From a virus, in IMG/VR virus record IMGVR_UViG_3300037264_002228, positions 34,444 through 98,443 of that record: a stretch of 64,000 nt of DNA; one strand, 5' to 3'. The position numbers and the translations under genes were made by a program. Below, one piece after another: positions 32,911 through 58,774 of the stretch (the stretch's first letter is position 1; every line of letters starts with the position of its first letter). A model generated the notes under the pieces. The model worked only from the letters and a program-made list of their open reading frames with translations, had not been told where the DNA came from and searched no databases.

Positions 32911-33447
32911 ATGGCATTAGTTATTGGTTTAACAGGCCGCAATGCGTCTGGTAAAGGTCAAATAGCAGAATACTTCAAAAATAAAGGTTTTAAATTCTAT
33001 TCTCTGTCAGACGTAATAAGAGACGAAGCCCGTAAACGTGGACTACAATGTACGCGTGATGTTATGGTTAGTATTGGCATAGAATTAAGATCTAAATATG
33101 GTACTGGTTATTTAGCGGACCGAACCATTAAAAATATTGAAATTAATTCTGATTATGTAATTGATTCATTTAGACATCCTAATGAAGTGAATGTTTTTAG
33201 AAGAATTAGTAATTTTAATTTGTTAGTTATTAAGTCAGACCAATTGATAAGATTTGAGCGCATAAAATTACGTAATAGGATTGGTGACCCTAAAACATAT
33301 CATGAATTTTTGGTATTAGATAATTATGAATCATCAAATCAGTCTAATGTTGGTCAGCAGCTAGATGAAGTAGAAAACATGGCAAATTGTACCATTGAAA
33401 ATAATGGTACTATTGAAGAACTATATTCCAAGCTTGGTAATTTATGA
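32911..33447 (+). CDS. P-loop nucleotide/dephospho-CoA kinase family protein
   Basis: IGLTGRNASGKG, SLSDVIR, IDSFRHPNE, RFERI..R.R.GD; ATG 32911 lies after the terminator. Confidence 0.8.
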   Translation: MALVIGLTGRNASGKGQIAEYFKNKGFKFYSLSDVIRDEARKRGLQCTRDVMVSIGIELRSKYGTGYLADRTIKNIEINSDYVIDSFRHPNEVNVFRRISNFNLLVIKSDQLIRFERIKLRNRIGDPKTYHEFLVLDNYESSNQSNVGQQLDEVENMANCTIENNGTIEELYSKLGNL

Positions 33448-33815
33448 TACTATCAATTATATTATGTCTTGCAATATTTTTATGGTCGATACTGTATTAC
33501 ATTACTAGACCGGAACCACCACCAACATGTGTTGAAGAAGAAATAATGCGCGTGGCTATTAATAAAATAAATTGGCGTAGACGTCCGTCGATTGATGAGA
33601 TATCGTTAATACCACATGGCGGCTTAGTTATGTCAATAGGTACAACTGATATGAGAAAACTTTATTTTGAATTCACTGAAGGTAAAGTGTGTATACGTTC
33701 ATTCAGAAGTGGTCGTAAAGATTTTGTTGACATAATCGATTTGGCAAGACCAGATAGCATTGAATTGTTATCTAATAAAATTGAGCATCATTATATTAAA
33801 TTATTGTATAGTTAA
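33444..33815 (+). CDS. small paralog-family protein with N-terminal TM segment
   Basis: C-terminal IDLARPDSIELL motif. Confidence 0.55.
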   Translation: MILSIILCLAIFLWSILYYITRPEPPPTCVEEEIMRVAINKINWRRRPSIDEISLIPHGGLVMSIGTTDMRKLYFEFTEGKVCIRSFRSGRKDFVDIIDLARPDSIELLSNKIEHHYIKLLYS

Positions 33816-34136
33816 ATGGATAACAATATAGCTGATGAACTTAAGCCATTGATTGTTGGATGGATTAGTGAACATCCAAAATATGGTCCATTAGATGAAG
33901 CATTAAAACATCGTGGATTAGTTCACCCAATAATGGTAATTGATAATAAAGGAGTCGTAATAGCATATGATGGCATTTGTCGCCCAGGGCCTATGCCTCC
34001 GTGTGATTCACAAGCTCTCCGTATATCAAGTGGCAATGTGCAATGTAACTATGTTGATCCTGCTTTTTTCGATAGAATATCTGATGTAATAGAGACACAT
34101 ATTGCTGAATGTACCATATGTCAGGAATTAATATGA
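33816..34136 (+). CDS. small paralog-family protein
   Basis: LIVGWI ... YVDPAFFDRI. Confidence 0.55.
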   Translation: MDNNIADELKPLIVGWISEHPKYGPLDEALKHRGLVHPIMVIDNKGVVIAYDGICRPGPMPPCDSQALRISSGNVQCNYVDPAFFDRISDVIETHIAECTICQELI

Positions 34137-34393
34137 AGCTAATTGATTTAATGATTGAGTGGTCAATTGGTGTGCCGATTGATTGCTATGAGACAGGTTA
34201 TATGTCGTGTAAGACATGTAGAGTTAATATTGGTGTAGTTCATGACACATATATTTATGTATATGGTATCAATAATGGTAAGATTATGTCATATGAACCA
34301 AATTTTTTTGAACAAATTATGAAAAGATCTGAGCACCCATGCGCTGAATTTAAGGCTATGACTGCTGGTCCAACATTTACAATCGCAGGTTAA
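34133..34393 (+). CDS. small paralog-family protein
   Basis: MKLIDLMIEW ... SYEPNFFEQI. Confidence 0.55.
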   Translation: MKLIDLMIEWSIGVPIDCYETGYMSCKTCRVNIGVVHDTYIYVYGINNGKIMSYEPNFFEQIMKRSEHPCAEFKAMTAGPTFTIAG

Positions 34394-34394
34394 T

Positions 34395-34802
34395 ATGCCA
34401 GTCGTAATACAAGTTTATTTTGGACATGAAACAGATAGAAAACATAGGATTAGTGGGCCTGCTGATAGTGACTTAATGTATGATCAAATTGCGAAGAAGC
34501 CAATATGTATACCCGATTGGCCAGATTTAGACTACGTTAGAGATGATGGTAGTTTCCCAATAACATTTATGGGTCTTCCGTTGTGGCGGCCCAAAGGCCT
34601 AGCAGTGTATCGTTGGGCCATTGATTATGTGTCTTGTAGTGATACACGATGGGTGGTTTTTGGCTCATATATGTCAGTAGTATCTGCAAAAGAAGCGATA
34701 AAACCACTATATGATTATATAAATGGATATCATATTATAAGTGAACATTGTTTTCTTGGTGAACATAAAGAACTTCCGCACGACATGTGGACAGACGGTT
34801 AA
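34395..34802 (+). CDS. hypothetical protein
   Basis: 135 aa ORF, tightly packed. Confidence 0.55.
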   Translation: MPVVIQVYFGHETDRKHRISGPADSDLMYDQIAKKPICIPDWPDLDYVRDDGSFPITFMGLPLWRPKGLAVYRWAIDYVSCSDTRWVVFGSYMSVVSAKEAIKPLYDYINGYHIISEHCFLGEHKELPHDMWTDG

Positions 34803-35213
34803 ATGATATCAAAGAACTTAACATTATCTATATTGATTACAGACTGGTTTAATAGACTCAAAAAGAAACACAAATGGTCTATTGGACGTAGTACCATAAT
34901 TAGTGGAAAGACGAATGAGCCAGTAGTAATACATTTATTGTATGAGCCATATAATGAGAAAATTGATGTTATTGATATAGACACCATAGAAAATAAAGCC
35001 TTTGGTCCAATATCTGGATATGACATACATAACAAATGGATTGATCAAGAAATTATAAGTATTACTGATCCACAATTTTTTAAAAAATTAAGATCGATGA
35101 TGCGAAGTGTGGAAAAAGAATTTAGAATATGTAAAGATGTTATTAGAAGACGCGACGGCCATCAGACTTATTACTCGATACATAGAGGAGAATGGAGAGA
35201 CGAATGCTTATAG
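34803..35213 (+). CDS. small paralog-family protein
   Basis: ILITDWF ... ISITDPQFFKKL. Confidence 0.55.
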   Translation: MISKNLTLSILITDWFNRLKKKHKWSIGRSTIISGKTNEPVVIHLLYEPYNEKIDVIDIDTIENKAFGPISGYDIHNKWIDQEIISITDPQFFKKLRSMMRSVEKEFRICKDVIRRRDGHQTYYSIHRGEWRDECL

Positions 35214-35509
35214 GTAAATCTGGATTGCATGAGATGCATTTGTATAAGTGTGTAGATGACGTACCTATGCCAGCTACAGAAGAAGATGTAGCCAATCCTG
35301 CTTATAAACCAATGGTTGTTATGATTATGAGCTATATGCGCTCTATGTCGCCGTTGTTGTATGAAGACAATAAATTATATCATATATATAACGACGCAAT
35401 TACGAAAGAGCTAATTAAAGAGCAGGTTATAGCATTATCAGGTTATCATAATAAATTGATTATTGATGCCGAGGCGGCACTAGAAAGTTGTTTCAAGAAA
35501 AATGGATAA
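35192..35509 (+). CDS. hypothetical protein
   Basis: About 100 aa ORF overlapping the upstream stop. Confidence 0.5.
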   Translation: MERRMLIGKSGLHEMHLYKCVDDVPMPATEEDVANPAYKPMVVMIMSYMRSMSPLLYEDNKLYHIYNDAITKELIKEQVIALSGYHNKLIIDAEAALESCFKKNG

Positions 35510-35645
35510 ATCAATTGGACAATCAGACGGGCATTATCATAAATGTAAAGAATGTGGCATAGAATATAAACATTATACAAAAGACGTTAAATGCAAAGAA
35601 CCACAAGATACTTATTGTGGTAAATGTAAAGAATTTGTAACTTAA
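35502..35645 (+). CDS. 47 aa zinc-finger-like peptide (not in ORF track)
   Basis: Translated by hand: MDKSIGQSDGHYHKCKECGIEYKHYTKDVKCKEPQDTYCGKCKEFVT; fills the gap between two ORFs. Confidence 0.5.
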   Translation: MDKSIGQSDGHYHKCKECGIEYKHYTKDVKCKEPQDTYCGKCKEFVT

Positions 35646-35664
35646 GTATTGAAAGTGAGGATTT

Positions 35665-35967
35665 ATGATGCTGATTATAGGATGTGACAATTGTAATATG
35701 AGCGACAATGGGTTACATATGAAATTAGAATTTAGGCATGTTAATAAATTTTGCAAAACATGCAATCATGATGAAACTACAATTTGGAATTATTATTTCT
35801 GTAATAGTGCGTGCATGTTCAATTGGCTAAGCCATCATGATGTTGAACAAAAAGGAGTTCCATGTAGAGATTGTAGAAATATTCAATCTGAACCGACTGG
35901 ATTTCTTTTCGGATTTAAAGAAAATGGAGTTTGTACATCTTGTAATGGTGTTAAGAGTGTAAAATGA
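35665..35967 (+). CDS. Cys-rich zinc-binding protein
   Basis: Four CxxC pairs plus FCNSAC; GAGG RBS. Confidence 0.6.
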   Translation: MMLIIGCDNCNMSDNGLHMKLEFRHVNKFCKTCNHDETTIWNYYFCNSACMFNWLSHHDVEQKGVPCRDCRNIQSEPTGFLFGFKENGVCTSCNGVKSVK

Positions 35968-36858: not shown

Positions 36859-37191
36859 ATGAAACCTTGGAGACATATGCGCAAAAACAAATATCAGAAG
36901 ACAGTACACAAATGGGTAAGTCAGTATAAAGATGGTTATTGGGACCCATTTAAAATTTTAGCTCGTTTATTTGAAGAGGGTGGCGAACTTTCTAGAGAAA
37001 TTAATCATAAATATGGGCCCAAAAAGAAGAAACCAGGTGAAAAGGCTGGAAGTATAGAAGAAGAAATAGGCGACATACTATTCACTATTATTTGTATGGC
37101 TAACTCACAAAACATTGATATTGATAAGGCATTTGAATATGCAATGCATAAGGCATATAATAGAGATGCCAATAGGTTTGAAAAATTATGA
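36859..37191 (+). CDS. MazG-like nucleotide pyrophosphohydrolase (YpjD type)
   Basis: LARLFEEGGELSREINH.YGPKKKK..EEEIGDILF..C.AN. Confidence 0.88.
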   Translation: MKPWRHMRKNKYQKTVHKWVSQYKDGYWDPFKILARLFEEGGELSREINHKYGPKKKKPGEKAGSIEEEIGDILFTIICMANSQNIDIDKAFEYAMHKAYNRDANRFEKL

Positions 37192-37535
37192 ATTCTATTG
37201 ATGTTGTTAAGCAAGCATTATCAACAATGAAATTTCAATACAGTGTTCAAGTTGAACCTATTGATCATAATAATGATTATTATATACAAGTACATGGTAT
37301 TAAGCATACGCATAAACTGTGGGGGACACCAACAAAGAAAGAAAGAATTGCAAGAATCGAATTAGATAGTGTGCTTGTGTTTGCGTATGATTACGACATA
37401 AGCTCAATTCCTGGACCGGTTGATGCAGTAGATGGTGCCGAATCGACATTATACTTAGCCGATCCTGATTTTTTTGTTAAGCTAGAAACAGCAATAAATG
37501 GGCATATTGAATGGCTTATTAAACATAAAATTTAA
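37188..37535 (+). CDS. small paralog-family protein
   Basis: LYLADPDFFVKLETAI. Confidence 0.55.
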   Translation: MNSIDVVKQALSTMKFQYSVQVEPIDHNNDYYIQVHGIKHTHKLWGTPTKKERIARIELDSVLVFAYDYDISSIPGPVDAVDGAESTLYLADPDFFVKLETAINGHIEWLIKHKI

Positions 37536-38680: not shown

Positions 38681-40450
38681 ATGTCTACTGAACAAGAAGC
38701 ATTAGCAGTCGCAGAAGCGGCAAGAGAAAAGAATTGGAAACAATCATTTTTAAAAGAATTGTTTCTCGGCTCGTTCAAATTTGACATGATAAGTCCGTTT
38801 CCGTCTAAGCCAGAAACTGCTGAATTCACTAGATTTTTTAATGGTTTTAAAAAGTTTTTATATACAAAAGTTAATCCTGCAGAAATTGATAAGACAGGAG
38901 AATATCCAACTGATGTTATTGACGGATTGCGTAAACTTGGCGCATTTGGTATGAAAATCCCTAAAGAATACGGTGGATTAGGATTTAACCAAGTTGAATA
39001 TGATACTATAATGAAGTTATTGGGCAGTTATGATGCTAATCTTACTGCTTTATTATCTGCACATCAGTCGATTGGAGCGCCTCAGCCTCTTAAGATGTTT
39101 GGTACAGAAGAACAGAAACAGAAATATTTGCCACGTTTAGCTGCTGGTTCAATATCTGCTTTTGCTTTAACCGAACCAGAAGTTGGTTCTGACCCATCAA
39201 GCATGAAATCATTAGTTGAGCGCACAAACGATGGATACACATTAAATGGCAAAAAATTGTGGTGCACGAATGCAACACTAGCAGACATGATAATAGTAAT
39301 GGCTAAGCATAGCGATACTGGCAAGATTAGTGCATTTGTTGTTGAAATGAATTCTCCCGGCGTTGTTATCGAACATCGTTGTAGATTTATGGGCTTAAGA
39401 GCATTAAGTAATGCACAGCTTAGTTTCACTAATGTCTTCATACCACGAGAGAATTTAGTAGGCAATGAGGGTCAAGGGTTAAAAATCGCACTAGCAACTC
39501 TCAATACTGGGCGTTTAGCAATACCAGCCGGTGCCGCTGGTGCGGTTAAAAAATGCTTAGAATTTGTACGCCGTTGGGCCAATAATAGAGTTCAATGGGG
39601 TCAATCAATTGGTAAGCATGAAGCTGTGTCTCATATGATAACTGACATTGCTTCGCACGCTTTTGCAATGGATGCTGTTGCCGACCTTGGTAGCAATCTG
39701 GCATGTGACAAAAACAGAGACATTAGATTAGAAGCCGCTGCAGCGAAAGAATTCAATACCTTTTATGGGTGGAAAATTATAGATGACACAATGCAAATAC
39801 GTGGTGGGCGCGGATATGAAACCGAAACATCATTAGAAGAACGTGGTGAATTGCCGATGCCAGTAGAACGTATGATGCGAGATTTCAGAATCAATAAAAT
39901 ATTTGAAGGTTCCAGCGAAATAATGCATCTTATGATAGCACGAGAGGCTGTTGATAAGCATATGCAGGTAGCTGGCGACTTACTTAATAAAAAATCATCT
40001 GTTTGGAGTAAAATTAAATCGATTTTTAAAATGGCTGCTTTCTATACTATTTGGTATCCATCAAAATGGATCGGATGGAGTCATTGGCCAAAGTTTTCTA
40101 AATTTGGCAAATTAAGTAAGCATCTTAAATTTATAGACAAGAATTCTAGAAAATTAGCTAGATCAATTTTTTATGGTATGTTATTAAATGGTCCGAAGTT
40201 GCAGTATAAACAAGCTTTTCTGTTTAGAATTGTAGATATTGCGTTAGATCTGTATGCTATGAGTGCGTCACTATCTAGAGCAGAATCAATACACACGAAT
40301 GAGGCCAATGAATTAGCTGAAGCTTTTTGCAGAACAGCTGAGCAACGTATTAAATTGAGATTCAAAGCGTTGTGGTTCAATGACGATGAGAAGAAGCGTA
40401 AAGTTGCTTTAAAAGTATTAGAAGGTAAACACATATGGATGGAGAAGTAG
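38681..40450 (+). CDS. acyl-CoA dehydrogenase (long, VLCAD-like)
   Basis: AFALTEPEVGSD, NGKKLWCTN, LNTGR, RVQWG, QIRGGRGY, IFEGSSEI; GAGGAG RBS. Confidence 0.93.
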   Translation: MSTEQEALAVAEAAREKNWKQSFLKELFLGSFKFDMISPFPSKPETAEFTRFFNGFKKFLYTKVNPAEIDKTGEYPTDVIDGLRKLGAFGMKIPKEYGGLGFNQVEYDTIMKLLGSYDANLTALLSAHQSIGAPQPLKMFGTEEQKQKYLPRLAAGSISAFALTEPEVGSDPSSMKSLVERTNDGYTLNGKKLWCTNATLADMIIVMAKHSDTGKISAFVVEMNSPGVVIEHRCRFMGLRALSNAQLSFTNVFIPRENLVGNEGQGLKIALATLNTGRLAIPAGAAGAVKKCLEFVRRWANNRVQWGQSIGKHEAVSHMITDIASHAFAMDAVADLGSNLACDKNRDIRLEAAAAKEFNTFYGWKIIDDTMQIRGGRGYETETSLEERGELPMPVERMMRDFRINKIFEGSSEIMHLMIAREAVDKHMQVAGDLLNKKSSVWSKIKSIFKMAAFYTIWYPSKWIGWSHWPKFSKFGKLSKHLKFIDKNSRKLARSIFYGMLLNGPKLQYKQAFLFRIVDIALDLYAMSASLSRAESIHTNEANELAEAFCRTAEQRIKLRFKALWFNDDEKKRKVALKVLEGKHIWMEK

Positions 40451-40962
40451 GTCAACTATTGTGTGAATCGCGTAGTGGTCAAAGGCTATTCATGATTGAA
40501 GCTAGCATTTTTGATAAAGCCGAACAATGGTATACACACGGTGGTTTAGCTACTTTTTCATCAATAAAACCACTTAAATCGTTTTTTATTGATGGTGGTG
40601 GTGCTATCATGTTAAATGAGCCAACTGTTACAATTGCAGCAAATAATGTTAATATTTCAACATTTAAGAGACACGTTCCATACATATTGGAAATGTTGAT
40701 GAATTTGGAAGAATCTAAAGTACAAGATTGTGTAGTATTTAGTGGTGGTATCCATATTTATATCATATCTGTTGTAACAAAAGCATTACTGGTTGATGAA
40801 TTGCGGCGTATATATGACGTCAGCAAGCATGAAATTAGAGAATTAGAAGATAATATTTATAATGGTCTAGAGCAATCGGGTATTTTATATCTTGGTAAAT
40901 GTAGTTGTTTATCTGGTAAATTATATAAAGAATGTTGTGGTACTAGCCACTTGATGGAGTAA
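40435..40962 (+). CDS. hypothetical protein with C-terminal SEC-C motif
   Basis: CSCLSGKLYKECCG. Confidence 0.65.
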   Translation: MDGEVGQLLCESRSGQRLFMIEASIFDKAEQWYTHGGLATFSSIKPLKSFFIDGGGAIMLNEPTVTIAANNVNISTFKRHVPYILEMLMNLEESKVQDCVVFSGGIHIYIISVVTKALLVDELRRIYDVSKHEIRELEDNIYNGLEQSGILYLGKCSCLSGKLYKECCGTSHLME

Positions 40963-40964
40963 TT

Positions 40965-41462
40965 ATGGATTGGCACCAATACTTTATGAGTTTGGCTTAT
41001 TTTGTAGCTATGAAGAGTAAAGATAAAAGCACTAAAATTGGTGCTGTTATTGTTGGACCAAATCATGATATTATATCTACTGGATACAATGGTTTACCAC
41101 GCGGCGTTAATGATGATTTAGATGAGCGACAAGAACGCCCGTTAAAATATTCACTTTTTGAACATGGTGAACGTAATGCTTTGTATAATGCAACCAGAAA
41201 TGGTATACCAGATAACTGTATAATATACACTCAAGGTTTACCTTGTGTTGATTGTGCGCGTGGAATCATTCAAAGTAGAATAAAAACAGTAATTTATCAT
41301 GTGCCATTTGACGCTGACAATTCATTACGTCCACAATGGGTAGAATCATGTAAATTGTCAGAAATGTTATTTAAAGAAAGCAATGTAGAGGTTATTGGAT
41401 ATAATGGTCCACTTATTGCTAATATTGTTGGCCTTAGGGGCGGAAAGATATTGACGTTATGA
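40965..41462 (+). CDS. dCMP deaminase
   Basis: SKD.STKIGAVIV, TGYNG.PRG, HGE.NA, PCVDCA. Confidence 0.92.
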   Translation: MDWHQYFMSLAYFVAMKSKDKSTKIGAVIVGPNHDIISTGYNGLPRGVNDDLDERQERPLKYSLFEHGERNALYNATRNGIPDNCIIYTQGLPCVDCARGIIQSRIKTVIYHVPFDADNSLRPQWVESCKLSEMLFKESNVEVIGYNGPLIANIVGLRGGKILTL

Positions 41463-41719
41463 CTATCATGCAATTACGAGAAAAACTTGATATATTACTA
41501 GATGGTCAATGTGGGTATTTATTGAATCCTAGCAACGGCAACGGATGGTCTGCACAAGTAATGTATAACGATAAATATGTGGTAGTTGAGCGGACAATTG
41601 AGAATGGATATATTTTATATTTCGAAGGTCAAAAATGCTGTATTACAGATGAATCTGTTATAGCGAACAAAGTAGTTGAAATGCTAACGAATTATGGAAC
41701 TTCTAGATATCTTGATTAA
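41459..41719 (+). CDS. hypothetical protein
   Basis: 86 aa ORF with overlapping start and stop. Confidence 0.5.
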   Translation: MTIMQLREKLDILLDGQCGYLLNPSNGNGWSAQVMYNDKYVVVERTIENGYILYFEGQKCCITDESVIANKVVEMLTNYGTSRYLD

Positions 41720-41972
41720 ATGGATAAATGAATATGATACTAGTCAATTTTGGTTCATAGAAAATGATGTCATTTGTTGCTGGCCAACAGGATGGGAACG
41801 TCCAGTTGCTGTATTTGTGATTGATGGATATATTATAAAATCTTTAGAATTAGGCGTAGTAATAAGAAATAATCTAAAAGAAGAATATTCAGTCTATGAC
41901 CCGAACTTTTTTCAGGATTTACAACATTCTTTGATGATACATAAAGCAGCATACACTAGAATAATATTATGA
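41694..41972 (+). CDS. small paralog-family protein
   Basis: MELLDILIKWI ... SVYDPNFFQDL. Confidence 0.55.
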   Translation: MELLDILIKWINEYDTSQFWFIENDVICCWPTGWERPVAVFVIDGYIIKSLELGVVIRNNLKEEYSVYDPNFFQDLQHSLMIHKAAYTRIIL

Positions 41973-42745
41973 ATAAATTGTTATTTATTGGTGGCCCATG
42001 TGTCATAGAATCAGAACAACATGCTATGAGGCATGCATCAGCCATAAAAGATATATGTACAAAATTAGACATAGATTTTATTTATAAAAGTTCCTATGAT
42101 AAAGCTAATAGGACGTCTGGCGAAACTTATCGAGGCCCAGGTTTAATTGATGGTTTATACATATTGAATAAAATTAAACATGAAATTGGCGTTAAGATAT
42201 TGACTGATGTCCATTCTGTTGATGAAGTGAAGTCTGCTGCGGTTGTAGTTGACGTGCTTCAAATTCCAGCATTGTTATGTCGTCAGACAGATTTAGTATT
42301 GGCTGCTTCGAGTACTCACAAAATAGTAAACATCAAAAAGGGCCAATTCATGGACCCATTGGCTATGAGGCATATATTAAAGAAAGCCTTATCAACTGGT
42401 AATAATAATATATGGTTATGTGAGCGTGGTACTACGTTTGGTTATAATAATTTAGTAGTTGATATGCGTTCAATACCAATAATGAAATCTTTTGGTTGCA
42501 AAGTAATAATGGATGCTGGACATGCAGTGCAACAGCCCGGTGGTCTTGGTAATGCATCCGGTGGGATGCGAGATATGATTCCGACGATGGCTCGTTGTGG
42601 TATCGCGGCTGGTGCTGATGGGTTGTTTATTGAAGTCCATGAAAATCCAGATGCTGGCCTAAGTGATGGACCGAATATGCTTAGATTAGATGATCTTGAA
42701 TCATTACTACGCCAAGCAAAAGAAATGAAAAATTTGCTCCTGTAG
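41969..42745 (+). CDS. kdsA: KDO 8-phosphate synthase
   Basis: GPCVIES, KSSYDKANRTS, TDVH, QIPA.LCRQT, KKGQF, ERG..FGYNNLVVD, H.VQQPG, SDG. Confidence 0.95.
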   Translation: MNKLLFIGGPCVIESEQHAMRHASAIKDICTKLDIDFIYKSSYDKANRTSGETYRGPGLIDGLYILNKIKHEIGVKILTDVHSVDEVKSAAVVVDVLQIPALLCRQTDLVLAASSTHKIVNIKKGQFMDPLAMRHILKKALSTGNNNIWLCERGTTFGYNNLVVDMRSIPIMKSFGCKVIMDAGHAVQQPGGLGNASGGMRDMIPTMARCGIAAGADGLFIEVHENPDAGLSDGPNMLRLDDLESLLRQAKEMKNLLL

Positions 42746-42809
42746 CCTATCGGTGAGGCAGGGATCTCTAAAATCTCATAGGTGAGTTCGACTCTCATCA
42801 GGAGCGCCA
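42736..42809 (+). tRNA. amber suppressor tRNA, anticodon CUA
   Basis: Acceptor GCTCCTG/CAGGAGC + G73 + CCA; D stem GCCT/AGGC with GG; anticodon stem GGGAT/ATCTC around loop CT-CTA-AA; T arm GTGAG-TTCGACT-CTCAT. Confidence 0.9.
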
Positions 42810-42814
42810 ATTTT

Positions 42815-43102
42815 ATGACGATATTATCAATAATCACTGTAGTATTTGCTACAGTGTTTATAGCATATTTCTTAATAAGTTGGGCAGATAGTAGACCTTG
42901 TTCTTATTGCAGCAACATGAGAGATCAACTAAAAGAAAGAATGCCACATTGTGATGGATGCGACAACATTGCAGATGTATATTATTGTACCACCTGTATT
43001 AAGAAGTTATTTAAAAAGCGCACACCTAGAATACGTAAATTTCTACAATTATTGCGTAGTATTAAAAAAATAAGACGTAGTGATGACGAGAAAAATATAT
43101 AA
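42815..43102 (+). CDS. membrane-anchored Cys-rich protein
   Basis: TM helix, then three CxxC pairs and a basic tail; ATG just after the tRNA. Confidence 0.55.
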   Translation: MTILSIITVVFATVFIAYFLISWADSRPCSYCSNMRDQLKERMPHCDGCDNIADVYYCTTCIKKLFKKRTPRIRKFLQLLRSIKKIRRSDDEKNI

Positions 43103-43115
43103 TATGGAGGCAATT

Positions 43116-43472
43116 ATGACATAGGGTACACATTTTTACGTGGTGGTAAGGGCAGATCTATCTATTCCTCAACAGCTTTGTCAAGCTGTTCACGCCGCTC
43201 ATGAATCGGGCATCCGGTTCGGCAACCCAAACGATATTTCATCAGTTGTTGTTTGTAGTGTCCCTGATGAAACCAGTCTATTATTAGAACAAGAAAAGGT
43301 TGAATCTAAAGGTATAAAGACTATACTATTTAGAGAACCGGACATAAACAACCAAGCTACAGCATTTGCTACAGAGTTAATCCCTAGCAATTATCGTAAG
43401 GTGTTTTCTAAGCTTGTTTTATGGAAAGGAAATGATTATGTTAGAAACAAGGAGGAATGTTATGGATCCTAA
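43116..43472 (+). CDS. Pth2-like peptidyl-tRNA hydrolase with in-frame TAG at codon 3
   Basis: GGAGG (43106-43110) then ATG ACA TAG GGT ACA CAT TTT TAC GTG in frame with ORF 43140..43472; FYVVVRADL..Q..Q.VHAA..FREPD.NNQ.TA.A is a PTH2-family pattern. Confidence 0.75.
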
Positions 43473-43773: not shown

Positions 43774-43775
43774 CT

Positions 43776-43920: not shown

Positions 43921-43936
43921 TGTGTATTTAAAGCAT

Positions 43937-48213: not shown

Positions 48214-49233
48214 ATGTCTGCTATCAAACAAAAAATTCATGCAGGTATTACCACATTGGCGTGGGTAGCATCAGAATATTTTAAAATCAACCCGTCCTGG
48301 ATTGATGCTGATGACTACATTCAAACAATGATCGTATTTGAATCATTGGTAGAAAAACATGGCTTTGATCATGCCGATTTAGTTATGAGATATCGAGCAG
48401 AACGGCCAACTAAAATTGCTGGGATCACTATTAAGAATAATGGGGTCGATCATGTTGGACAGATGCATAAATTAAAACAAGATCCTAATCCGCTTTATAT
48501 TGATGATATTGGTTTTACGCCGGGTTGTGCAATGAAAGCGATGCCACTTGGAGTCTGGCACAAAAAATTTGACGATACTGTTTTGTTGGCAGATAATATC
48601 ACGCGCATTACACATGGTACTGCAGAAGCACGGCTAGTAGGTGTATTAACAGCACTTCGATATAGGCATGCATTACTTGAAATTGATAATCCTGATATAT
48701 TGATCCAAGATTGGACAACAGCCGCAAAGACACTTAACTTATATGGCACGACAGCATGGGATTGCGTCAACCGCTCTGTTCAACGCGCAAAAGACATTAT
48801 AGCTACAAGTTGTGGTGTTGAAGCATTGTGTAAATTACTTAGGCGTGTTGGTTTAATGTATTTTGCATGGAGCGGCCCGATAAGCGCAATATTCTGGAGT
48901 TATGTTGTTGATGTGACTTTTAAGAAAATCTTTATGCATGTTGGTAGTGACAAAAAGTTTACAATAAATTCTGAACAAATTCTTGTTGATAATGACGTTC
49001 ATAATGAATACGCCAGTCATGTGAAGAAGCATCACGTAAAATGGAAGAGATGGTTAAACGAACCTAAAACAGGTAGACAAGATTCAGACACTTTCTTTTC
49101 TATTGCTTTTTCTATAGCGTCAATAAGAAATCATAATTTCTTAAGCGATATAGAACAAAATCAAGCGCTCGATGATATAGGTAGAGAAGATTGGACACCA
49201 ATTATTGATGCGGTGGACAAACAATGGAAATGA
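48214..49233 (+). CDS. ADP-ribosylglycohydrolase-like protein
   Basis: DD..QT, G.AMK..PLG, ITH...A and DSDT motifs in the DraG/ARH order. Confidence 0.6.
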   Translation: MSAIKQKIHAGITTLAWVASEYFKINPSWIDADDYIQTMIVFESLVEKHGFDHADLVMRYRAERPTKIAGITIKNNGVDHVGQMHKLKQDPNPLYIDDIGFTPGCAMKAMPLGVWHKKFDDTVLLADNITRITHGTAEARLVGVLTALRYRHALLEIDNPDILIQDWTTAAKTLNLYGTTAWDCVNRSVQRAKDIIATSCGVEALCKLLRRVGLMYFAWSGPISAIFWSYVVDVTFKKIFMHVGSDKKFTINSEQILVDNDVHNEYASHVKKHHVKWKRWLNEPKTGRQDSDTFFSIAFSIASIRNHNFLSDIEQNQALDDIGREDWTPIIDAVDKQWK

Positions 49234-49970
49234 ATAAAGCATTTGCACATTTAGCATTACCATATTATATTGATAATGTTAAAGAAAGAGCCGCAGAAGT
49301 AACAGAAGTCTTAAAGAAGAATATAGCGAACCCTTTGTTTGAAAAGATCCATGTATTTTGTGAAGATCCTGAAGAAACATATGCTGCTGCTGGCGTTCAA
49401 ACATTGTTTGATAACCCGAAAGTGTGTCGTATTCAATTAGGTCGCAGAGGGACATATAAAGATCTGTTCACTCATTTGAGTGCGGAGGCTCCAGGGAAGG
49501 TTTGTGTTGGGTCGTATTGTGATATCTATTTTGATGATACGCTTTCGCTTGTAAAAGACGTTGATCTATCAGGAGTATTTTTATCTCTAGCTAAATGGGA
49601 TGTTGGTAAGACTGCCGATATGCGTGATTGGGACCATTATGCTCAAAGACGAAAATTTAGAAATAAAGGCCCATATAACCCTGTTTGGTCACAAGATTGT
49701 TGGATTTTTAAGGCACCATTAAAAGAATTTCCATGTGATTGGGGCTTTGGGATACCAGGTGATGACAATCTGCTTACCTATAAGGCTAAAGAAGCTGGAC
49801 TTCACGTCGTAAATCCATCGTTGTCTATCAAAGCATGGCATTTACATGAGAGCGGATCGAGACGATGGACCAAAGCAGATAGAATGTGGATACCTAACGA
49901 GACAGAAATTGCGGCCTTCAAGGCCAATATGAATGCAGTGACATTAGAAGAAGCATTGATACGGAAATGA
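49224..49970 (+). CDS. hypothetical, possible glycosyltransferase-like protein
   Basis: CDIYFD, SQDCWIF, G.PG.DN, NPS..I...HLH. Confidence 0.45.
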   Translation: MEMNKAFAHLALPYYIDNVKERAAEVTEVLKKNIANPLFEKIHVFCEDPEETYAAAGVQTLFDNPKVCRIQLGRRGTYKDLFTHLSAEAPGKVCVGSYCDIYFDDTLSLVKDVDLSGVFLSLAKWDVGKTADMRDWDHYAQRRKFRNKGPYNPVWSQDCWIFKAPLKEFPCDWGFGIPGDDNLLTYKAKEAGLHVVNPSLSIKAWHLHESGSRRWTKADRMWIPNETEIAAFKANMNAVTLEEALIRK

Positions 49971-50055
49971 AAATACCGTTAAACAACATGGATATAGTAT
50001 TAAAAGAGAATGTTAATTATACCTATTCTGACACAAATCTATTAATAGAGGACTT

Positions 50056-51129
50056 ATGTCTTTAGACCCAATTAAGCGAATTTTGGCTGAATTACACAAC
50101 AAAGAATCATTTATCACATTGTTGGAAGCTGTATTGTCAGAAGGTATAGTACGCCTACATGATTGGGAAACAGATCCAAAATTCAAATATGACCATGAAG
50201 GCAACCCAGCAGAATATAAAGAAGCCACCATCACAGCTGAAGACTTTGTAAATAATGCACGCCCAGGACAAAGCATATCAAAAAGTCAGTACATTTTTAC
50301 ACCAGTAGACTTTGCATTGACTCCAGGCGACGGCGCTAAAATGGTCGCACATATTGCTGCATTAATTAAGCAAAACGGCAGTGTTACAGTCACTACACTA
50401 CCGGGATTCGGAATTGAAGAAGATCGTGCATACGCCGCAAGGTGGTACAAAACATTCACACATGAAGCTAAAACATTAGTACAATCGCAGCTTGGACAAG
50501 GATTAGTTCTGACAGCAATCAATGGAGAATCATTATCGCGTTGGTTAGTTAAGCCATCACCATTTGACACTAGCGACCCGGAAACAGTATCTAAACATTG
50601 GAAAGGCGGCAAAGTCCCAGATTGGTTGGCCGATCTAGCTTCAGAAATAGATGAAGCTGTTCAGGCTGGTCGTGTTAATGTTGAGCGTATTACAAAAATT
50701 GAAGGATTTAATGGAGATTTAGCGTTATCGACGCCTAAAGGCGATGCGGTATTGTTAGTTTCTAAAGATCCATCAAGAGCTGCGTATATTGTTCGCAAAA
50801 AGATTGATAACACCGACTGGGATATGTGGATGTACAACAAGATGAAAGAGTTGTATCAGACATATAGACGTAAACCAGCTGGCACTAAAAAGGAAGATCT
50901 ACCAAACTTAAATTTAAAAGATAAACGTCAACCTAAATTATCTGCAAGAGACGAATTAAGTAAACTTGGAGCTGGATACGCTTTGCGCCGCGCTATTGGC
51001 CACAAGAGCCCTCAGGGTAGCAATCAACAAATGCGTGAAGAAATGAAGCTCTTAATTAATAATGGTGTTAACTTCGAAGAAGGCCGCCATTTGGCTGACA
51101 CATCTCAAACACCACCACAAGATGCATAG
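50056..51129 (+). CDS. hypothetical, possible virion protein
   Basis: 357 aa; CAAATCTA motif and GAGGA upstream; LLE/LSE sites near the N-terminus. Confidence 0.6.
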   Translation: MSLDPIKRILAELHNKESFITLLEAVLSEGIVRLHDWETDPKFKYDHEGNPAEYKEATITAEDFVNNARPGQSISKSQYIFTPVDFALTPGDGAKMVAHIAALIKQNGSVTVTTLPGFGIEEDRAYAARWYKTFTHEAKTLVQSQLGQGLVLTAINGESLSRWLVKPSPFDTSDPETVSKHWKGGKVPDWLADLASEIDEAVQAGRVNVERITKIEGFNGDLALSTPKGDAVLLVSKDPSRAAYIVRKKIDNTDWDMWMYNKMKELYQTYRRKPAGTKKEDLPNLNLKDKRQPKLSARDELSKLGAGYALRRAIGHKSPQGSNQQMREEMKLLINNGVNFEEGRHLADTSQTPPQDA

Positions 51130-51157
51130 TAGTATTTAAGTAACGAGGATTACTACT

Positions 51158-51832
51158 TTGAAAATTGTAGCCATATCGGATACGCACTTAGTTCATGATG
51201 AATTTGACAAAATACCAGCCATACCAGATGGTGATATTTTAATCCATTCTGGTGATGCCACGTTCCGTGGTCGCCCACATGAAATATATCGTTTTTCTAA
51301 ATGGTTTCATTCATTACCACACAAATACAAAATATTCGTAGCTGGAAATCATGACATAATGTTTGAGGATGATCGTGTTAAAGCAATGGGGTTATTATAC
51401 GATAATTCACAATATTGGTCGAGCCCAATACCGCATAAAGATAGATGCACATATTTAGAGGACAATGAAATAACTATAGAAGGTCTTAGAATATATGGGG
51501 CTCCTTGGAGTCCAAGATTTTATGATTGGGCGTTTAATGTTGATCGTGGTCCTAAAATTAAGGCTAAATGGGATCTTATACCTGAAGGAATTGATATATT
51601 AGTAACTCATGGCCCACCATATGGGTATGGTGATCTATCAACTAAAAACGAATTGCTAGGCTGTAAAGACTTAATGGAAGCAGTAAATCGCGTGAAACCA
51701 AAAGTGCATATTTTCGGCCATATTCATTCTGGGTATGGCGTATCTAATAATGGCCATACTACATTCATAAATGCAGCTATGTGTGATGATACTTATTATC
51801 CAGCTAATAAGCCATTAGAAATAACGCTGTAA
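51158..51832 (+). CDS. calcineurin-like metallophosphoesterase
   Basis: SDTH, H.GD, AGNHD, THGPP, FGHIH. Confidence 0.92.
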   Translation: MKIVAISDTHLVHDEFDKIPAIPDGDILIHSGDATFRGRPHEIYRFSKWFHSLPHKYKIFVAGNHDIMFEDDRVKAMGLLYDNSQYWSSPIPHKDRCTYLEDNEITIEGLRIYGAPWSPRFYDWAFNVDRGPKIKAKWDLIPEGIDILVTHGPPYGYGDLSTKNELLGCKDLMEAVNRVKPKVHIFGHIHSGYGVSNNGHTTFINAAMCDDTYYPANKPLEITL

Positions 51833-51916
51833 CAAGAGCTGTATTTCACTATTAATAAGTGGCTTCTGCAAAGCGGGAATACATACGGAAACACTTGGAA
51901 ATATATTGGGAAAACA

Positions 51917-52699
51917 ATGTTAGAATTTTTTATAGACAATTTAGACAATATTACAACAAAAGCTATTGTAGATGAATATGGTAATGAGCTAACTAAAGAG
52001 AATAAATTAAAGCCGTACACATCAATTACTAGAGAAGAAGCTATATCACAATTGTCGCGTGATGCGATTAATTATAGATATTCTAAAATATATGTAAGTT
52101 CACTTACAAATGTATGCAAGTGTAGGTTCTGGAAACTATTTTGTAAACATAAAGAATATCAAGAATATGTTATGTGTTTAGATTGCGACAGTGAACTAAA
52201 TATGTTAGCTGCTGCTAGATATCTTAATATCTCAGGTATTGGGTATAGTATTATTAAAAGTAGTGAAGCAGGTGACTCAATTCCGAAGCCACCACAGCTC
52301 GGTCCACAATGGCCGCAAGGCATACAGGGACCACAGTTGTTTATACAAGCCGTACAAGTACCAACTGACCATTATTGGATTATCACAGATTTTGTAAGTG
52401 ATTTAATGTCTGTAGCAAATAAAATGAAATCAATACCGGGTGTTGACCATCGTTATGCAAATTGTGTTTTTTATAGAAAAACTGTTCTGTTGCGAGCTTA
52501 TCCTAAAGACGATAAGATGCCAATATTTCCAGATTCGCATAGTTTAACGAATACATTAGCAGTTAAGTGGTACGAATCTTTTAAGAATTATTGGTTATCG
52601 AAAGATATGGTCAGTTTAATGACTGCTAGAGAACTACAATTAGCACTTGTTAATGGGAACATCAAAACAATGATTATGAATCCTAATTTCGTAGTTTAG
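51917..52699 (+). CDS. hypothetical protein
   Basis: 260 aa ORF with GPQ mini-repeats. Confidence 0.55.
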   Translation: MLEFFIDNLDNITTKAIVDEYGNELTKENKLKPYTSITREEAISQLSRDAINYRYSKIYVSSLTNVCKCRFWKLFCKHKEYQEYVMCLDCDSELNMLAAARYLNISGIGYSIIKSSEAGDSIPKPPQLGPQWPQGIQGPQLFIQAVQVPTDHYWIITDFVSDLMSVANKMKSIPGVDHRYANCVFYRKTVLLRAYPKDDKMPIFPDSHSLTNTLAVKWYESFKNYWLSKDMVSLMTARELQLALVNGNIKTMIMNPNFVV

Positions 52700-53007
52700 T
52701 TTGTATCTTCATATTCATCTTCATTTTTTAAGAACATCTTTGTTGTAGTTAAAGCATCATCAATTGCTGTTGCTAATATTTTCATGCTATTTGGATCTGC
52801 TAAGTCGATTTTTTCCGGAAAATGTCTGCCATTTTTGATTGTCAATATGGGTCCATCTCCTTCAACAATACACCAACGTGCTCCTATTTGTATTCTATCG
52901 TCTCTAATCCAGATCTGGTTTTGATTGTCTATTGTCGTCACTGTGACATGATTGATACCAATCATTTGCAATGCATATTTTACGTATAATACAATTGTTT
53001 TGTCCAT
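52696..53007 (-). CDS. small paralog-family protein
   Basis: IDLADPNSMKILATAI. Confidence 0.55.
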   Translation of the reverse strand: MDKTIVLYVKYALQMIGINHVTVTTIDNQNQIWIRDDRIQIGARWCIVEGDGPILTIKNGRHFPEKIDLADPNSMKILATAIDDALTTTKMFLKNEDEYEDTN

Positions 53008-53072
53008 ATTGTATTTTAGTTATGGAAATGGTTAACATAAGTTTACTAATATATTAAGAGTAAATAGACGTA

Positions 53073-53243
53073 ATGCCAAAAACAAATAGATCAGTAGTAC
53101 AAATTCCGCTTGCATGTTGTAGGTGTGGGACTAAACAAGCTATTTGGCGATTAGATGGTAGACTTAAAGATAAGAACCACCCCAAGCATATGTGGTGTCA
53201 TATCTGCAATAAAAAAACTGCACATTTTCAAATTTATGATTAG
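53073..53243 (+). CDS. 56 aa zinc-ribbon protein resembling ribosomal protein L33 (not in ORF track)
   Basis: Translated by hand: MPKTNRSVVQIPLACCRCGTKQAIWRLDGRLKDKNHPKHMWCHICNKKTAHFQIYD. Confidence 0.55.
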   Translation: MPKTNRSVVQIPLACCRCGTKQAIWRLDGRLKDKNHPKHMWCHICNKKTAHFQIYD

Positions 53244-53265
53244 AACCAACACGAAGTGATGTAAT

Positions 53266-53748
53266 ATGAATTTTAATGGCGCAAATTGTACTATATGTAA
53301 AACAAATAAGGCGGCATATTATATAGTTGATATATTGCATGGTAACAAAACTGAAAGTTACTTATGTGAACCATGTTTAAAGAAATTCGATACTAGTGGG
53401 TTTTTAAAATTGTTTGCACTTCCTATAAGCCAAATTGGAATGCTAACAGGATTTTCTAATAATGACATTAAATGCGAATCATGCGGTATGACTTTATCTA
53501 AATTTGTGCAGACTAAAAGAGTTGGGTGTGCAAAGGATTACGATTTGTTTAATTTAGGACCATTGTTAGAATCGCATCATAAAGCATCTAAGCATGTTGG
53601 CAAAGTTCCAGCAAACCAAGTAACTCAAGAAACTATATCCAATAGAGTCGACCATCTTAATAAATCCATGGCTGAAGCAATAAAATCAGAAAAATATGAA
53701 GAAGCTGCTAGAATTCGTGATGAAATAAAAAACCTAAAAGGAAATTAA
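53266..53748 (+). CDS. mcsA: McsA-like protein-arginine kinase activator
   Basis: CTIC..LCEPC..CESCGMT..F....RVGC..DY..F..H.GKVP, C-terminal UVR motif EKYEEAARIRDEI. Confidence 0.85.
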   Translation: MNFNGANCTICKTNKAAYYIVDILHGNKTESYLCEPCLKKFDTSGFLKLFALPISQIGMLTGFSNNDIKCESCGMTLSKFVQTKRVGCAKDYDLFNLGPLLESHHKASKHVGKVPANQVTQETISNRVDHLNKSMAEAIKSEKYEEAARIRDEIKNLKGN

Positions 53749-53749
53749 T

Positions 53750-53998
53750 ATGCGTATGCCATTTGGTAAACACAAAGGTCTTGAAATTTCTGCTTTGCCA
53801 GAAGATTACTTGAAGTGGCTTGTTCAAACCATAGATCCAGGTGACGTAAAAGATGAAGCAAAACGAGTACTCGATAGTGGTGAATTTAAGCAAGAACAGA
53901 AATATAGCGACTTAGAAGCAGAAGCAAATCGTATATTAGGCGAGAAACCAGTTGACTTATTAAAACGCGGTTATGGCAAGCCTAGGAGACGACTATGA
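53750..53998 (+). CDS. DUF3820 / ExoX C-terminal-like small protein
   Basis: MPFGKHKG..I..LP.DYL.W. Confidence 0.75.
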   Translation: MRMPFGKHKGLEISALPEDYLKWLVQTIDPGDVKDEAKRVLDSGEFKQEQKYSDLEAEANRILGEKPVDLLKRGYGKPRRRL

Positions 53999-54939
53999 AA
54001 GATTTAGACTACGTCAAGCATATAATTTCAATTGAAGCTAATGCTGTAGCCCAGTTGTTATCACATGCAGATGCAGAATTCGAAAGAGCTGTAATTTTGT
54101 GTCGTCAATGTCAGGGCAACATTATCGTATCTGGTGTTGGCAAGAGCGGATTTATAGCACAAAAGATGGCAGCTACTTATGCTAGTATTGGTATCAAATC
54201 TTGGTGGATTCATCCAAATGATGCTGACCATGGCGATATTGGAAGAGTCACCGATAAAGACGTTTGCATATTGTTTTCGAATAGTGGCGAGACTAAAGAA
54301 ATTATAAATTTAGCTAACCAAATTAAATCAAGAAACGCCAAAATTATATCAATAGTCGGTAAGAAAAATTCGACATTAGGTTTATTGTCTGATGTGGTTG
54401 TGTACATTGGCGAATGTGTAGAAGCTGGTTTAATAAAAGCCATACCAACATCATCGACAACTGTCTCATTGGTTGCGGCGGATGCAATAGCTCTTGCTAC
54501 TGTCGGTACAAATCTCAGCAATGACGAATTTCAGAAGAACCACAAAGGTGGATCTATTGGAGTTAAATTGTCAAAAGTCAATGTATTTATGAGATCTGGT
54601 AGTGACTGTGTTATTGTTTCTATTCATAATAGACTATTAGATGTGATACTGGCTATGACTGGTGCTCACACTGGGGCCGCAATAGTAGTTGATCAAGATC
54701 ATGTTGTTGGTATTATTACTGATGGTGATTTAAGAAGATTTGTATGTAATCATGACATCACTTCAGCATGGGCCGTTAACTGTATGACCAAAAATCCGAT
54801 TACAATGGTGTCTAGTAAAACCATAGAAGAAGCAATGGAAGTTTTTAGGCATCACTCTATTGGTGATATACCAATTGTTAATGAAATGTTAGTGCCAATT
54901 GGTATGTTGAGTCTGAAGGATCTGGCAAAACTGATTTAA
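53995..54939 (+). CDS. kdsD: arabinose-5-phosphate isomerase (SIS + CBS)
   Basis: GVGKSG.IA.K.AAT, HGD.G, S.SGET.E, PT.STT, H.GG..G, GIITDGDLRR. Confidence 0.92.
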   Translation: MKDLDYVKHIISIEANAVAQLLSHADAEFERAVILCRQCQGNIIVSGVGKSGFIAQKMAATYASIGIKSWWIHPNDADHGDIGRVTDKDVCILFSNSGETKEIINLANQIKSRNAKIISIVGKKNSTLGLLSDVVVYIGECVEAGLIKAIPTSSTTVSLVAADAIALATVGTNLSNDEFQKNHKGGSIGVKLSKVNVFMRSGSDCVIVSIHNRLLDVILAMTGAHTGAAIVVDQDHVVGIITDGDLRRFVCNHDITSAWAVNCMTKNPITMVSSKTIEEAMEVFRHHSIGDIPIVNEMLVPIGMLSLKDLAKLI

Positions 54940-55892: not shown

Positions 55893-55897
55893 TTAGT

Positions 55898-57796: not shown

Positions 57797-57799
57797 CAT

Positions 57800-58030: not shown

Positions 58031-58038
58031 TAAAATTA

Positions 58039-58115
58039 CAGGCACAGGGTCAGATAGCGGGCCGCCTGCCTCGGAAGCAGGAGTCAGCGCAGTGCAAGTC
58101 TGCGGTGCCTGACCA
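58039..58115 (+). tRNA. tRNA-Pro(CGG)
   Basis: CAGGCAC/GTGCCTG, loop CTCGGAA, T loop TGCAAGT, CCA. Confidence 0.8.
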
Positions 58116-58116
58116 T

Positions 58117-58194
58117 CAGGGTGTAGCTCAGATAGTGATGAGCGCATGTTTTGGATACATGAGGTCGCTGGTGCGAGTCCAGTCACCCTGACCA
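58117..58194 (+). tRNA. tRNA-Pro(UGG)
   Basis: CAGGGTG/CACCCTG, loop TTTGGAT, T loop TGCGAGT, CCA. Confidence 0.85.
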
Positions 58195-58207
58195 TAAAAA
58201 TTAATAT

Positions 58208-58284
58208 CCGGGTGTAGCGTAGTCTGGTAACGCGTCTGCTTTGGGAGCAGAAGATCGCAGGTTCAAATCCTGTCACCTGGACCA
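58208..58284 (+). tRNA. tRNA-Pro(UGG), second copy
   Basis: CCGGGTG/CACCTGG, loop TTTGGGA, TTCAA, CCA. Confidence 0.92.
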
Positions 58285-58285
58285 C

Positions 58286-58360
58286 TTCGGGGTCAGCTAA
58301 TTGGTAAGCTGCTTGTCTGTTAAACAAGTCATCGGGGTTCAAGTCCCTGCCCCGGAGCCA
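58286..58360 (+). tRNA. tRNA-Asn(GUU)
   Basis: TTCGGGG/CCCCGGA, loop CTGTTAA, G73, CCA. Confidence 0.9.
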
Positions 58361-58370
58361 AAATTATCTT

Positions 58371-58454
58371 GCCCCTGTGGTGGAACAGCAGACACGATGG
58401 TCTTAGAAGCCATTGCCAATAGGCGTGGAGGTGCGACTCCTCTCAGGGGCACCA
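58371..58454 (+). tRNA. tRNA-Leu(UAG)
   Basis: GCCCCTG/CAGGGGC, loop CTTAGAA, variable arm, T loop TGCGACT, CCA. Confidence 0.88.
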
Positions 58455-58465
58455 ATAAATAAATT

Positions 58466-58774
58466 ATGGATTTTTGTGAAATAATTTCTGAATGGCTTAA
58501 AACCAATTGCACAAATTGGCAAGTATGGTATGGGGCTTTTATTGAAATTGGATTTAAAGACAACATGAAAAGATGGACATGTATGTCACACATATATCTT
58601 ACACAAAATGAAATTCATGTATACGAGAGAATTAGACGAATTAAACAGAATGCTGTTTTAGTTCACTCACCAAATTATGCACCAGATTATTTAAAATATT
58701 CTCTCAATGCTTGTGATCCAAATTTGTTTAGTAAATTAAAAGAAATTTTAACAGAATACGAAAAGGTCCTATAG
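58466..58774 (+). CDS. small paralog-family protein inside the tRNA array
   Basis: MDFCEIISEWL ... LNACDPNLFSKL; AT-rich island between tRNAs. Confidence 0.6.
   Translation: MDFCEIISEWLKTNCTNWQVWYGAFIEIGFKDNMKRWTCMSHIYLTQNEIHVYERIRRIKQNAVLVHSPNYAPDYLKYSLNACDPNLFSKLKEILTEYEKVL

Follow-up and report, generated by a model that had tools for sequence, protein, structure and literature searches.

What are the 13 small open reading frames (ORFs) that lie downstream of the capsid gene of an uncultured virus and appear to share little more than a DPxFF-like motif close to their C termini? The locus raises three linked questions: whether these ORFs encode one protein family, what the shared motif does and what so many copies would be for. 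They lie in a stretch of 64,000 nucleotides, referred to here as the window, which covers bases 34444–98443 of a 98,443-bp IMG/VR virus record (IMGVR_UViG_3300037264_002228; 23% complete according to CheckV). Positions are those of the window, and ORFs are named by their first base. An original prediction, made from the sequence, had described the ORFs as a dispersed family of paralogues. All 13, together with the peptides quoted from them, were found at their coordinates, 12 on the plus strand and one (52696–53007) on the minus strand; the probable true starts of three of them are 43937, 46067 and 47406, matching the gene calls of other pipelines.

A Family of Diverged Paralogues

Across the 98-kb record, five ORFs contain the strict form of the motif, [DE]PxFFxx[LIF], where shuffled ORFs would give 0.095; a count of five was reached in 0 of 1000 shuffles. 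A loose form was weakly enriched when taken by itself (20 ORFs against 9.9 expected, about twofold, with 4 of 1000 shuffles reaching 20), and membership was therefore judged by profiles. Pairwise BLAST among the window ORFs was weak, giving a best expectation value (E) of 0.008 in a database of 334 ORFs; the best matches of the candidates were mostly fellow candidates. Leave-one-out hidden Markov models (HMMs) ranked 11 of the 13 ORFs first among about 300 ORFs and the remaining two second. This test is circular, as the ORFs had been picked by their motif, and independent tests were used instead. An HMM built from members in other phages only, all sharing under 30% identity with the window proteins, gave its 12 best scores among 815 six-frame segments to 12 of the 13 ORFs (E values from 2e-13 to 1e-3). 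When the C-terminal motif columns were taken out of the non-window HMM, its top six matches were still six window members. Similarity past the C-terminal motif holds for at least six to eight members; it is not demonstrated for 33444, 47054, 34109 and 34803, and is unclear for 37188. Since the independent HMM, the motif-deleted HMM and the shuffles agree, the family is, on sequence evidence, real, and its similarity exceeds the motif.

The ORFs fall into two groups. Ten constitute the main family, with an N-terminal helix (LxDIIxxWLxEN), a variable β-sheet and a last strand leading into a C-terminal helix ([IL]xA[AS]DPxFFxKLxxxL). The other three (47054, 52696 and, marginally, 33444) carry DPxS[ILM] in place of DPxFF and differ in their N-terminal part. 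A subgroup HMM built without 33444 retrieved 33444 (E 4e-4), the next match being 37188 from the main group. Because 37188 is matched by both profiles (E 0.003 with the subgroup HMM), it bridges the groups, and the DPxS[ILM] subgroup appears weakly linked to the main family, mostly via the last strand and C-terminal helix. Profile searches supported no further members in the 98-kb record. As an extra member, 41459–41719 was rejected by the profile test, and a weak candidate about 28 kb upstream of the window start reached E 0.002 with the HMM trained on the window, against E 0.3 for the independent HMM.

Conserved Ends and Predicted Fold

The domain is about 90–110 amino acids in length. In a profile of 157 sequences, regional means computed from the per-column table were about 1.6 bits per column for the first helix and about 2.0 for the last strand and C-terminal helix, with 0.2–0.6 bits in most middle columns. 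This bears out one part of the original prediction, that of an expanded scaffold whose ends stay constant while its middle varies greatly. The N-terminal helix has the consensus (M/P)xLxDIIxxWLxEN, its Trp being 87% conserved, and the C-terminal consensus is [IL]xA[AS]DPxFFxKLxxx[LI], with Asp at 89%, Pro at 97%, the two Phe residues at 87 and 92%, Lys at 75% and Leu at 87%. The middle of the profile has an aromatic residue at position 20 and a DD turn. In the strands, conserved Ile and Val residues alternate (positions 35, 39, 51, 56, 58, 71 and 73), and the outward-facing positions are variable and often Tyr. For the helices, residues Leu5, Ile8, Ile9, Trp12 and Leu13 and residues Phe78, Phe79, Leu82 and Leu86 follow i, i+3/4, i+7/8 spacing and so mark a single helix face.

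Models were obtained with AlphaFold2 for one ORF of each group. The model of 58466, from a 37-sequence alignment, had a predicted local distance difference test score (pLDDT) of 77.6 and a predicted template modelling score (pTM) of 0.70; it has a helix at residues 3–14, five to six strands and a helix at residues 87–101, both helices with pLDDT above 87. For 47054, a 98-sequence alignment in which both groups were mixed gave a model (pLDDT 66.6, pTM 0.62) with a helix, seven strands and a helix, in the same element order as 58466, so that its predicted topology equals that of the main group. The two models thus agree in topology, and they draw largely one list of look-alikes from the PDB. The predicted fold is a two-layer sandwich in which the N- and C-terminal amphipathic helices pack on one face of an antiparallel sheet of five to seven strands.

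In the 58466 model, Asp84 and Pro85 directly precede the helix that DSSP begins at residue 87. Asp at the N-cap and Pro at N1 are known preferences at helix starts, and the Asp-Pro pair fits the roles of helix N-cap and N1 residue. Because the strongest conservation lies on the hydrophobic faces of both helices and on the helix cap, we infer that DPxFF is a fold signature, made up of core and cap, rather than an exposed docking peptide. The original prediction had taken the motif for a constant docking site, a claim that finds no support here: the conserved residues have the spacing of the buried face of an amphipathic helix, with Asp-Pro at the helix start.

Searches of Family and Structure Libraries

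Searches of Pfam, PHROGs and NCBIfam with window members, consensus-like members and whole alignments returned no recurring match. Among 98 members no Pfam family recurred at E ≤0.05; four different PHROGs (v4) were each matched by one of the 98, none of them recurring, and NCBIfam matched none of 48 members. Nothing under E 0.48 was found when PDB sequences were searched by profile, and Foldseek gave no match at E ≤1e-3 against the PDB or BFVD. The top VIA-align matches of the 58466 model were the Med17 C-terminal domain of Mediator (Z 8.0) and frataxin/CyaY (Z 7.4), against a background of Z 7–8 for unrelated models; PsiB, the TriTu immunity protein, type III secretion chaperones, AcrIIA11 and YjbR came lower. 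The Atlas structure search returned YbjN, DUF1801 and DUF5655 at template modelling (TM) scores of 0.57–0.69, normalised by query, and the Atlas feature search returned hypothetical proteins only, with scores up to 0.82. The predicted architecture resembles that of frataxin or YbjN, by fold comparison at background scores. None of the libraries searched contains a description of the family.

Occurrence in Related Phages

A T4-type major capsid protein is encoded at 31313–32824 (Gp23, E 5.6e-79). Some 170 proteins in viral contigs are related to it at 74–88% identity, and complete genomes of 354–408 kb are among these contigs; its closest GenBank matches are an unannotated 595-kb uncultured phage (41%) and cyanophages (about 30%). 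Given this Gp23-type protein, its relatives and their genome sizes, the record is, as judged from its genes, a piece of an uncultured T4-like jumbo phage.

A HMMER search of 1.84 billion representative sequences gave 166 matches at E <1e-3, among which P0082 and P0119 were repeat-driven false positives, and DPx[FCSL][FILM]xx followed by a hydrophobic residue was present in 130 of 152 retrieved proteins. The family comprises at least about 150 sequence clusters, all metagenomic; the representatives looked up were likewise all metagenomic and at best named "hypothetical protein". When ORFs around the capsid genes of relatives were searched with the HMM, proteins with VSDPQFFEKL, MCDPDFFEKL and FADPNFFQKL were found at E values down to 1.7e-7, and iteration over these loci brought the count to 53 members. 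A word-indexed homologue search with the family alignment gave five matches only, and a search of viral contigs for close relatives of 37188 and 46067 was negative.

Copy number varied among the relatives. The source record (98 kb, 23% complete) carries its 13 copies within 25 kb; nine were found on the 30-kb contig G009, six in G007 (32 kb), seven in G014 (234 kb, 89% complete) and 9 to 15 in the complete 408-kb genome G004. In G006 (125 kb, 34% complete) the genome search found five, and a wider profile found eight in the first 30 kb. The family is absent or marginal in the complete relatives G001–G003. No member was found by profile search in T4, in the cyanophages S-SSM7 and S-RIM50 or in the 595-kb LR756511, and tblastn with two consensus-like members against 50,697 GenBank phage records gave nothing at E ≤1. 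As mapped by these searches, the family occurs solely in an uncultured clade of T4-like jumbo phages with genomes of 230–410 kb, whose nearest isolated relatives have capsid proteins only about 30% identical.

The nearest relative of a window paralogue is never another window paralogue. Orthologues found elsewhere are 59% identical for 37188 (P0038), 52% for 46067 (P0108), 47% for 47406 and 43% for 58466 (P0034). A homologue 95% identical to 58466 (P0006) also occurs elsewhere. G006, with a capsid protein 87% identical, is syntenic downstream of gp23 and has members at matching positions. Orthologues were recognised there for 47406 (43%), for 52696 (44%, with the inverted orientation kept) and for 47054 (26%, z 6.7), and the remaining matching positions hold members with no detectable orthology. 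Since the non-family neighbours in G006 are 35–56% identical, the whole region evolves fast. The same region of G006 lacks most of the metabolic genes of the window (KdsA, PncA, NAPRTase, deoxycytidylate (dCMP) deaminase and acyl-CoA dehydrogenase), and the members stay in place; a pairing of one member with each metabolic gene was rejected because G006 retains members without those genes. From these comparisons, the duplications are old, with some lineages stably retained and others turning over.

The domain also occurs in tandem within one protein (L088/P0025) and in two fusions. One of these (P0002, at L017:7564-8397) has DUF7919 (E 7.3e-21) at its N terminus and the family domain at its C terminus; a literature search for DUF7919 found no paper. 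In the other (L107:937-1785, minus strand), the family domain is N-terminal and is followed by an AlkB-like 2-oxoglutarate-Fe(II) oxygenase (E 2.3e-17). Because of the tandem copy and the fusions among relatives, the sequence fits an autonomous domain that may be used as an accessory module.

Individual Members and Their Surroundings

All ten main members are on the plus strand. The first, 33816–34136 (IVGWISEH ... YVDPAFFDRI), scored E 1.7e-6 with the independent HMM and was among the top six once the motif had been removed. It is followed by 34109–34393 (LMIEW ... SYEPNFFEQI; E 1.1e-4), whose start is ambiguous, with 34109, 34118 and 34133 as candidates and other gene calls varying. At 34803–35213 (ILITDWFNRL ... 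ITDPQFFKKL; E 3.2e-12) the protein has a C-terminal extension, and 37188–37535 (VVKQALSTM ... LADPDFFVKL; E 4.9e-11) lacks the Trp of the first helix. The ORF at 41694–41972 (ILIKWINEY ... VYDPNFFQDL; E 1.5e-8) overlaps the start of kdsA by 4 nt. Next are 43937–44278 (LILMWLEDR ... LHDAYFFDKL; E 2.4e-8), second in rank with the motif removed, and 46067–46477 (IIRRWFSEN ... IASPTFFDDL; E 3.2e-8). With the motif removed, 47406–47729 (TIIREWLKDQ ... AHSENFFPLL; E 2.5e-10) ranked first, and 47689–48213 (QIIKGFLSDM ... FANPKCFEYF; E 5e-4), which ends in a basic 50-residue C-terminal tail, was also in the top six. The last, 58466–58774 (EIISEWLKTN ... ACDPNLFSKL), has the lowest E value (2.3e-13) and lies within a tRNA array. 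At 58371–58839 it is set between tRNA-Leu(TAG) and tRNA-Asp, and its final 10 nt run into tRNA-Asp, which begins at 58765.

For the DPxS[ILM] subgroup, 47054–47413 (plus strand; LAEPDSIDKL) was matched by the non-window subgroup HMM at E 4.9e-5 and by the main HMM at E 1.1e-3, and 52696–53007 (LADPNSMKIL), the sole minus-strand member, was matched by the subgroup HMM at E 7.6e-14. The marginal member 33444–33815 (plus strand; LARPDSIELL) gave BLAST E values of 0.008 to 47054 and 0.013 to 52696, and E 0.66 with the main independent HMM; its N terminus is hydrophobic and resembles a membrane anchor. Members are mostly acidic, with a median isoelectric point (pI) of 5.7 and 58% under pI 6; a few are basic, among them 47406 (pI 9.6) and 34803 (pI 9.1).

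Downstream of gp23 the genes are co-oriented and often overlap, and small ORFs with no assignment are interspersed with metabolic genes. At 38681–54939 the latter include genes for MazG, acyl-CoA dehydrogenase and dCMP deaminase (a deoxynucleoside monophosphate (dNMP) kinase-like gene lies upstream, beside 33444), for KdsA and a KdsD-like SIS+CBS protein of 3-deoxy-d-manno-octulosonic acid (KDO) synthesis, and for Pth2, PncA, NAPRTase, an ADP-ribosylglycohydrolase and a metallophosphoesterase. The names kdsA, PncA and dCMP deaminase were given by reading translations, without a profile search. The KDO synthesis genes suggest a Gram-negative host.

Flanked by family members on both sides, 46431–47057 (plus strand, 208 amino acids) matches the Phage ABA sandwich domain below threshold (PF18066, E 0.001, with 20.2 bits where 27 are required), and its orthologue is retained in G006 and G007. 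The window contains 13 tRNAs. ARAGORN calls one of them at 42736–42809 (plus strand), between kdsA and the Pth2-like gene, and labels it Pyl; its anticodon is CTA, that of an amber suppressor. The window ORFs read through normally with translation table 11. Sigma-70-like sites showed no excess over shuffles, nor was TATAAATA, the T4 late promoter, enriched.

Possible Functions

The 13 ORFs are best explained as diverged paralogues of one uncatalogued small domain. In it, DPxFFxKL would span the end of the last strand, the Asp-Pro helix N-cap and the buried opening turns of the C-terminal helix. This segment and the N-terminal helix with its Trp would hold the fold together, leaving the strands, loops and outward-facing sheet residues free to vary. 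Through its variable face, each paralogue may then bind a partner of its own, most likely a protein of the host or of its defences, and the set would be a repertoire of takeover or counter-defence binders kept as separate old gene lineages. A putative repertoire of protein binders against host or defence proteins is favoured because of the small size and acidic charge of the proteins, their fixed core and variable sheet face, their multiple copies, patchy distribution and location in an accessory region; we would give it about an even chance of being correct. PsiB (3nct), AcrIIA11 (9utm), the TriTu immunity protein (7zhm) and T7 Gp1.2 (7u65/7u66), each of which binds and blocks one target protein, are similar to the family in size and architecture (Z 4.5–6.2). 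They share the mode of action proposed for the family, with no sequence relation and with structural scores at the level of noise.

Several observations weigh against a binder repertoire, or against parts of the argument that leads to it. Several paralogues keep their synteny, which points to stable, housekeeping-like roles and not to the arsenal of an arms race. No fold match rises above noise (best Z 8.0, none from Foldseek), and the resemblance to known binders therefore carries little weight. The polar helix face is moderately conserved (Lys81 at 75%, acidic residues at positions 7, 11, 15, 77 and 80) and may be a shared interaction surface. The shared topology of the two models is not fully independent, both having been built on family alignments, and burial of the two Phe residues and the Trp is read from helical periodicity. 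Finally, hhalign aligned the DPxS[ILM] subgroup to the main profile with a probability of 24% (P 8.5e-4) over 26 columns, which cover the last strand and C-terminal helix.

The proteins might instead be an array of adaptors, in which a conserved two-helix face or the motif docks all paralogues on one machine of the phage or host (a protease, polymerase or ribosome, for example) and the variable sheet recruits a range of targets to it. The constant ends and variable middle, the conserved polar helix positions and the enzyme fusions, which suggest a targeting module, would all fit. So would a nearby protein encoded at 53266–53748 (plus strand), in which Cys-rich, zinc-finger-like N-terminal repeats precede a UvrB/UvrC motif at the C terminus (PF02151, E 4.2e-9) in a McsA-like architecture, and whose orthologue is kept in G006 at 45% identity. 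Such an array is unlikely, however, as conservation peaks at the helix cap and on the hydrophobic sides of the helices, a pattern usual for a core, and as G004 and G014 have the family yet neither a homologue of the UVR-motif protein nor a ClpP that could be found. No homologue of 53266–53748 was found at E ≤1e-3 in G001–G004 or G014, and ClpP (PF00574) had no match in G000, G004, G006, G009 or G014, with controls positive in 12 of 14 genomes. The link to a Clp protease that the original prediction had drawn from the McsA-like protein is thus unsupported, given that both G004 (complete, 9–15 members) and G014 (seven members) carry the family without either partner.

Dedicated chaperones or partner subunits, each paralogue serving one phage client (an enzyme or virion protein), are a rather unlikely alternative. 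Look-alikes of the models include type III secretion chaperones and YbjN, folds that usually act by protein binding, and translational coupling is seen for 33444 after the dNMP kinase gene, 37188 after MazG, 41694 before KdsA and 43937 before PncA; the stable synteny of several paralogues also fits. Against this, G006 keeps members at the same places though the metabolic genes are absent, and the fold scores are at noise level: SycH, SchA, VecA, ExsC, Spa15 and SicP gave VIA-align Z scores of 4.3–5.8 with the family models. The type III chaperone fold has a middle helix, which the predicted family topology lacks and which counts against this explanation. YbjN (PF10722) and DUF1801/DUF5655 (YdhG-like) are two-layer α+β sandwiches like the family, and YbjN- and chaperone-like structures reached Atlas TM scores of 0.62–0.64, modest for about 100 residues; neither PF10722 nor the type III chaperone family PF05932 had an HMM match to the family.

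It is improbable that the proteins are interchangeable substrate receptors, with the acidic two-helix face and near-constant Lys plugging into one phage or host machine and the hypervariable, Tyr-rich sheet selecting a separate host target in each paralogue. The logic of such a modular targeting system would be comparable to that of F-box or other receptor families, here in a bacterial virus. Small DNA- or RNA-binding regulators with diversified sequence specificity are still less probable. A helix-sheet-helix topology is common to some nucleic acid binders, chains of double-stranded RNA-binding domains appear low in the Foldseek list, one member lies within the tRNA array and a few members (47406 and 34803) are basic; on the other side, most members are acidic, the profile has no conserved basic patch and no nucleic acid-binding family was matched. 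That there is no single family, and that a short motif recurs by chance in unrelated small ORFs, would agree with the weak BLAST scores between window members, the roughly twofold excess of the loose motif and the alignment of the DPxS subgroup across 26 columns only, but it is highly improbable in view of the independent and motif-masked HMMs, the roughly 150 homologous clusters with the motif and the common predicted topology, and for the ten main members it is refuted.

Comparison with Known Systems

Frataxin/CyaY structures (4hs5, 9t2w, 2fql and 4jpd) and the related Nqo15 (2fug_7) and NdhV (6l7o_V) have the same order of elements as the predicted fold, with the helices on one face of the sheet. 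For frataxin 4hs5 and the 58466 model, Z was 7.4 with a root mean square deviation (rmsd) of 2.9 Å over 81 residues, which is inside the range that the tool gives for unrelated models; the 47054 model scored Z 6.0 with the frataxin fold, and rmsd values for the two models were 2.9–3.3 Å over 81–85 residues. Frataxin (PF01491) has no sequence or profile similarity to the family, which shows no tie to iron-sulfur metabolism and occurs as 13 copies in one phage.

Expanded families of diverged small proteins are frequent in large phages, and a zinc-ribbon family of about 35 copies has been described in Bacillus phage G (PMC7824862). As with expansions of the phage G type, the present family consists of many diverged small paralogues in one large phage, its helix motifs being constant and the rest variable, and it is likewise absent from the catalogues. 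It differs from other jumbo-phage expansions in its motif, in having fewer copies (5–15), which are dispersed among metabolic genes instead of forming a single tandem array, and in having several stable positional orthologues. The phenomenon of small-protein family expansion in large phages is thus known, and this particular family is an uncatalogued case of it.

A profile and a fold model now define the family, together with its copy-number pattern and positional orthologues, and with this definition its genes become recognisable in metagenomes. It offers a compact scaffold, with a predicted fixed two-helix core and variable sheet, that could be screenable for host targets. If the members serve in counter-defence or takeover, new inhibitors could be drawn from them; were they to have one docking partner in common, they would represent a new kind of modular adaptor. 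Much of the extra DNA of large phages consists of diverged small-protein families without names, and this family is one more of them.

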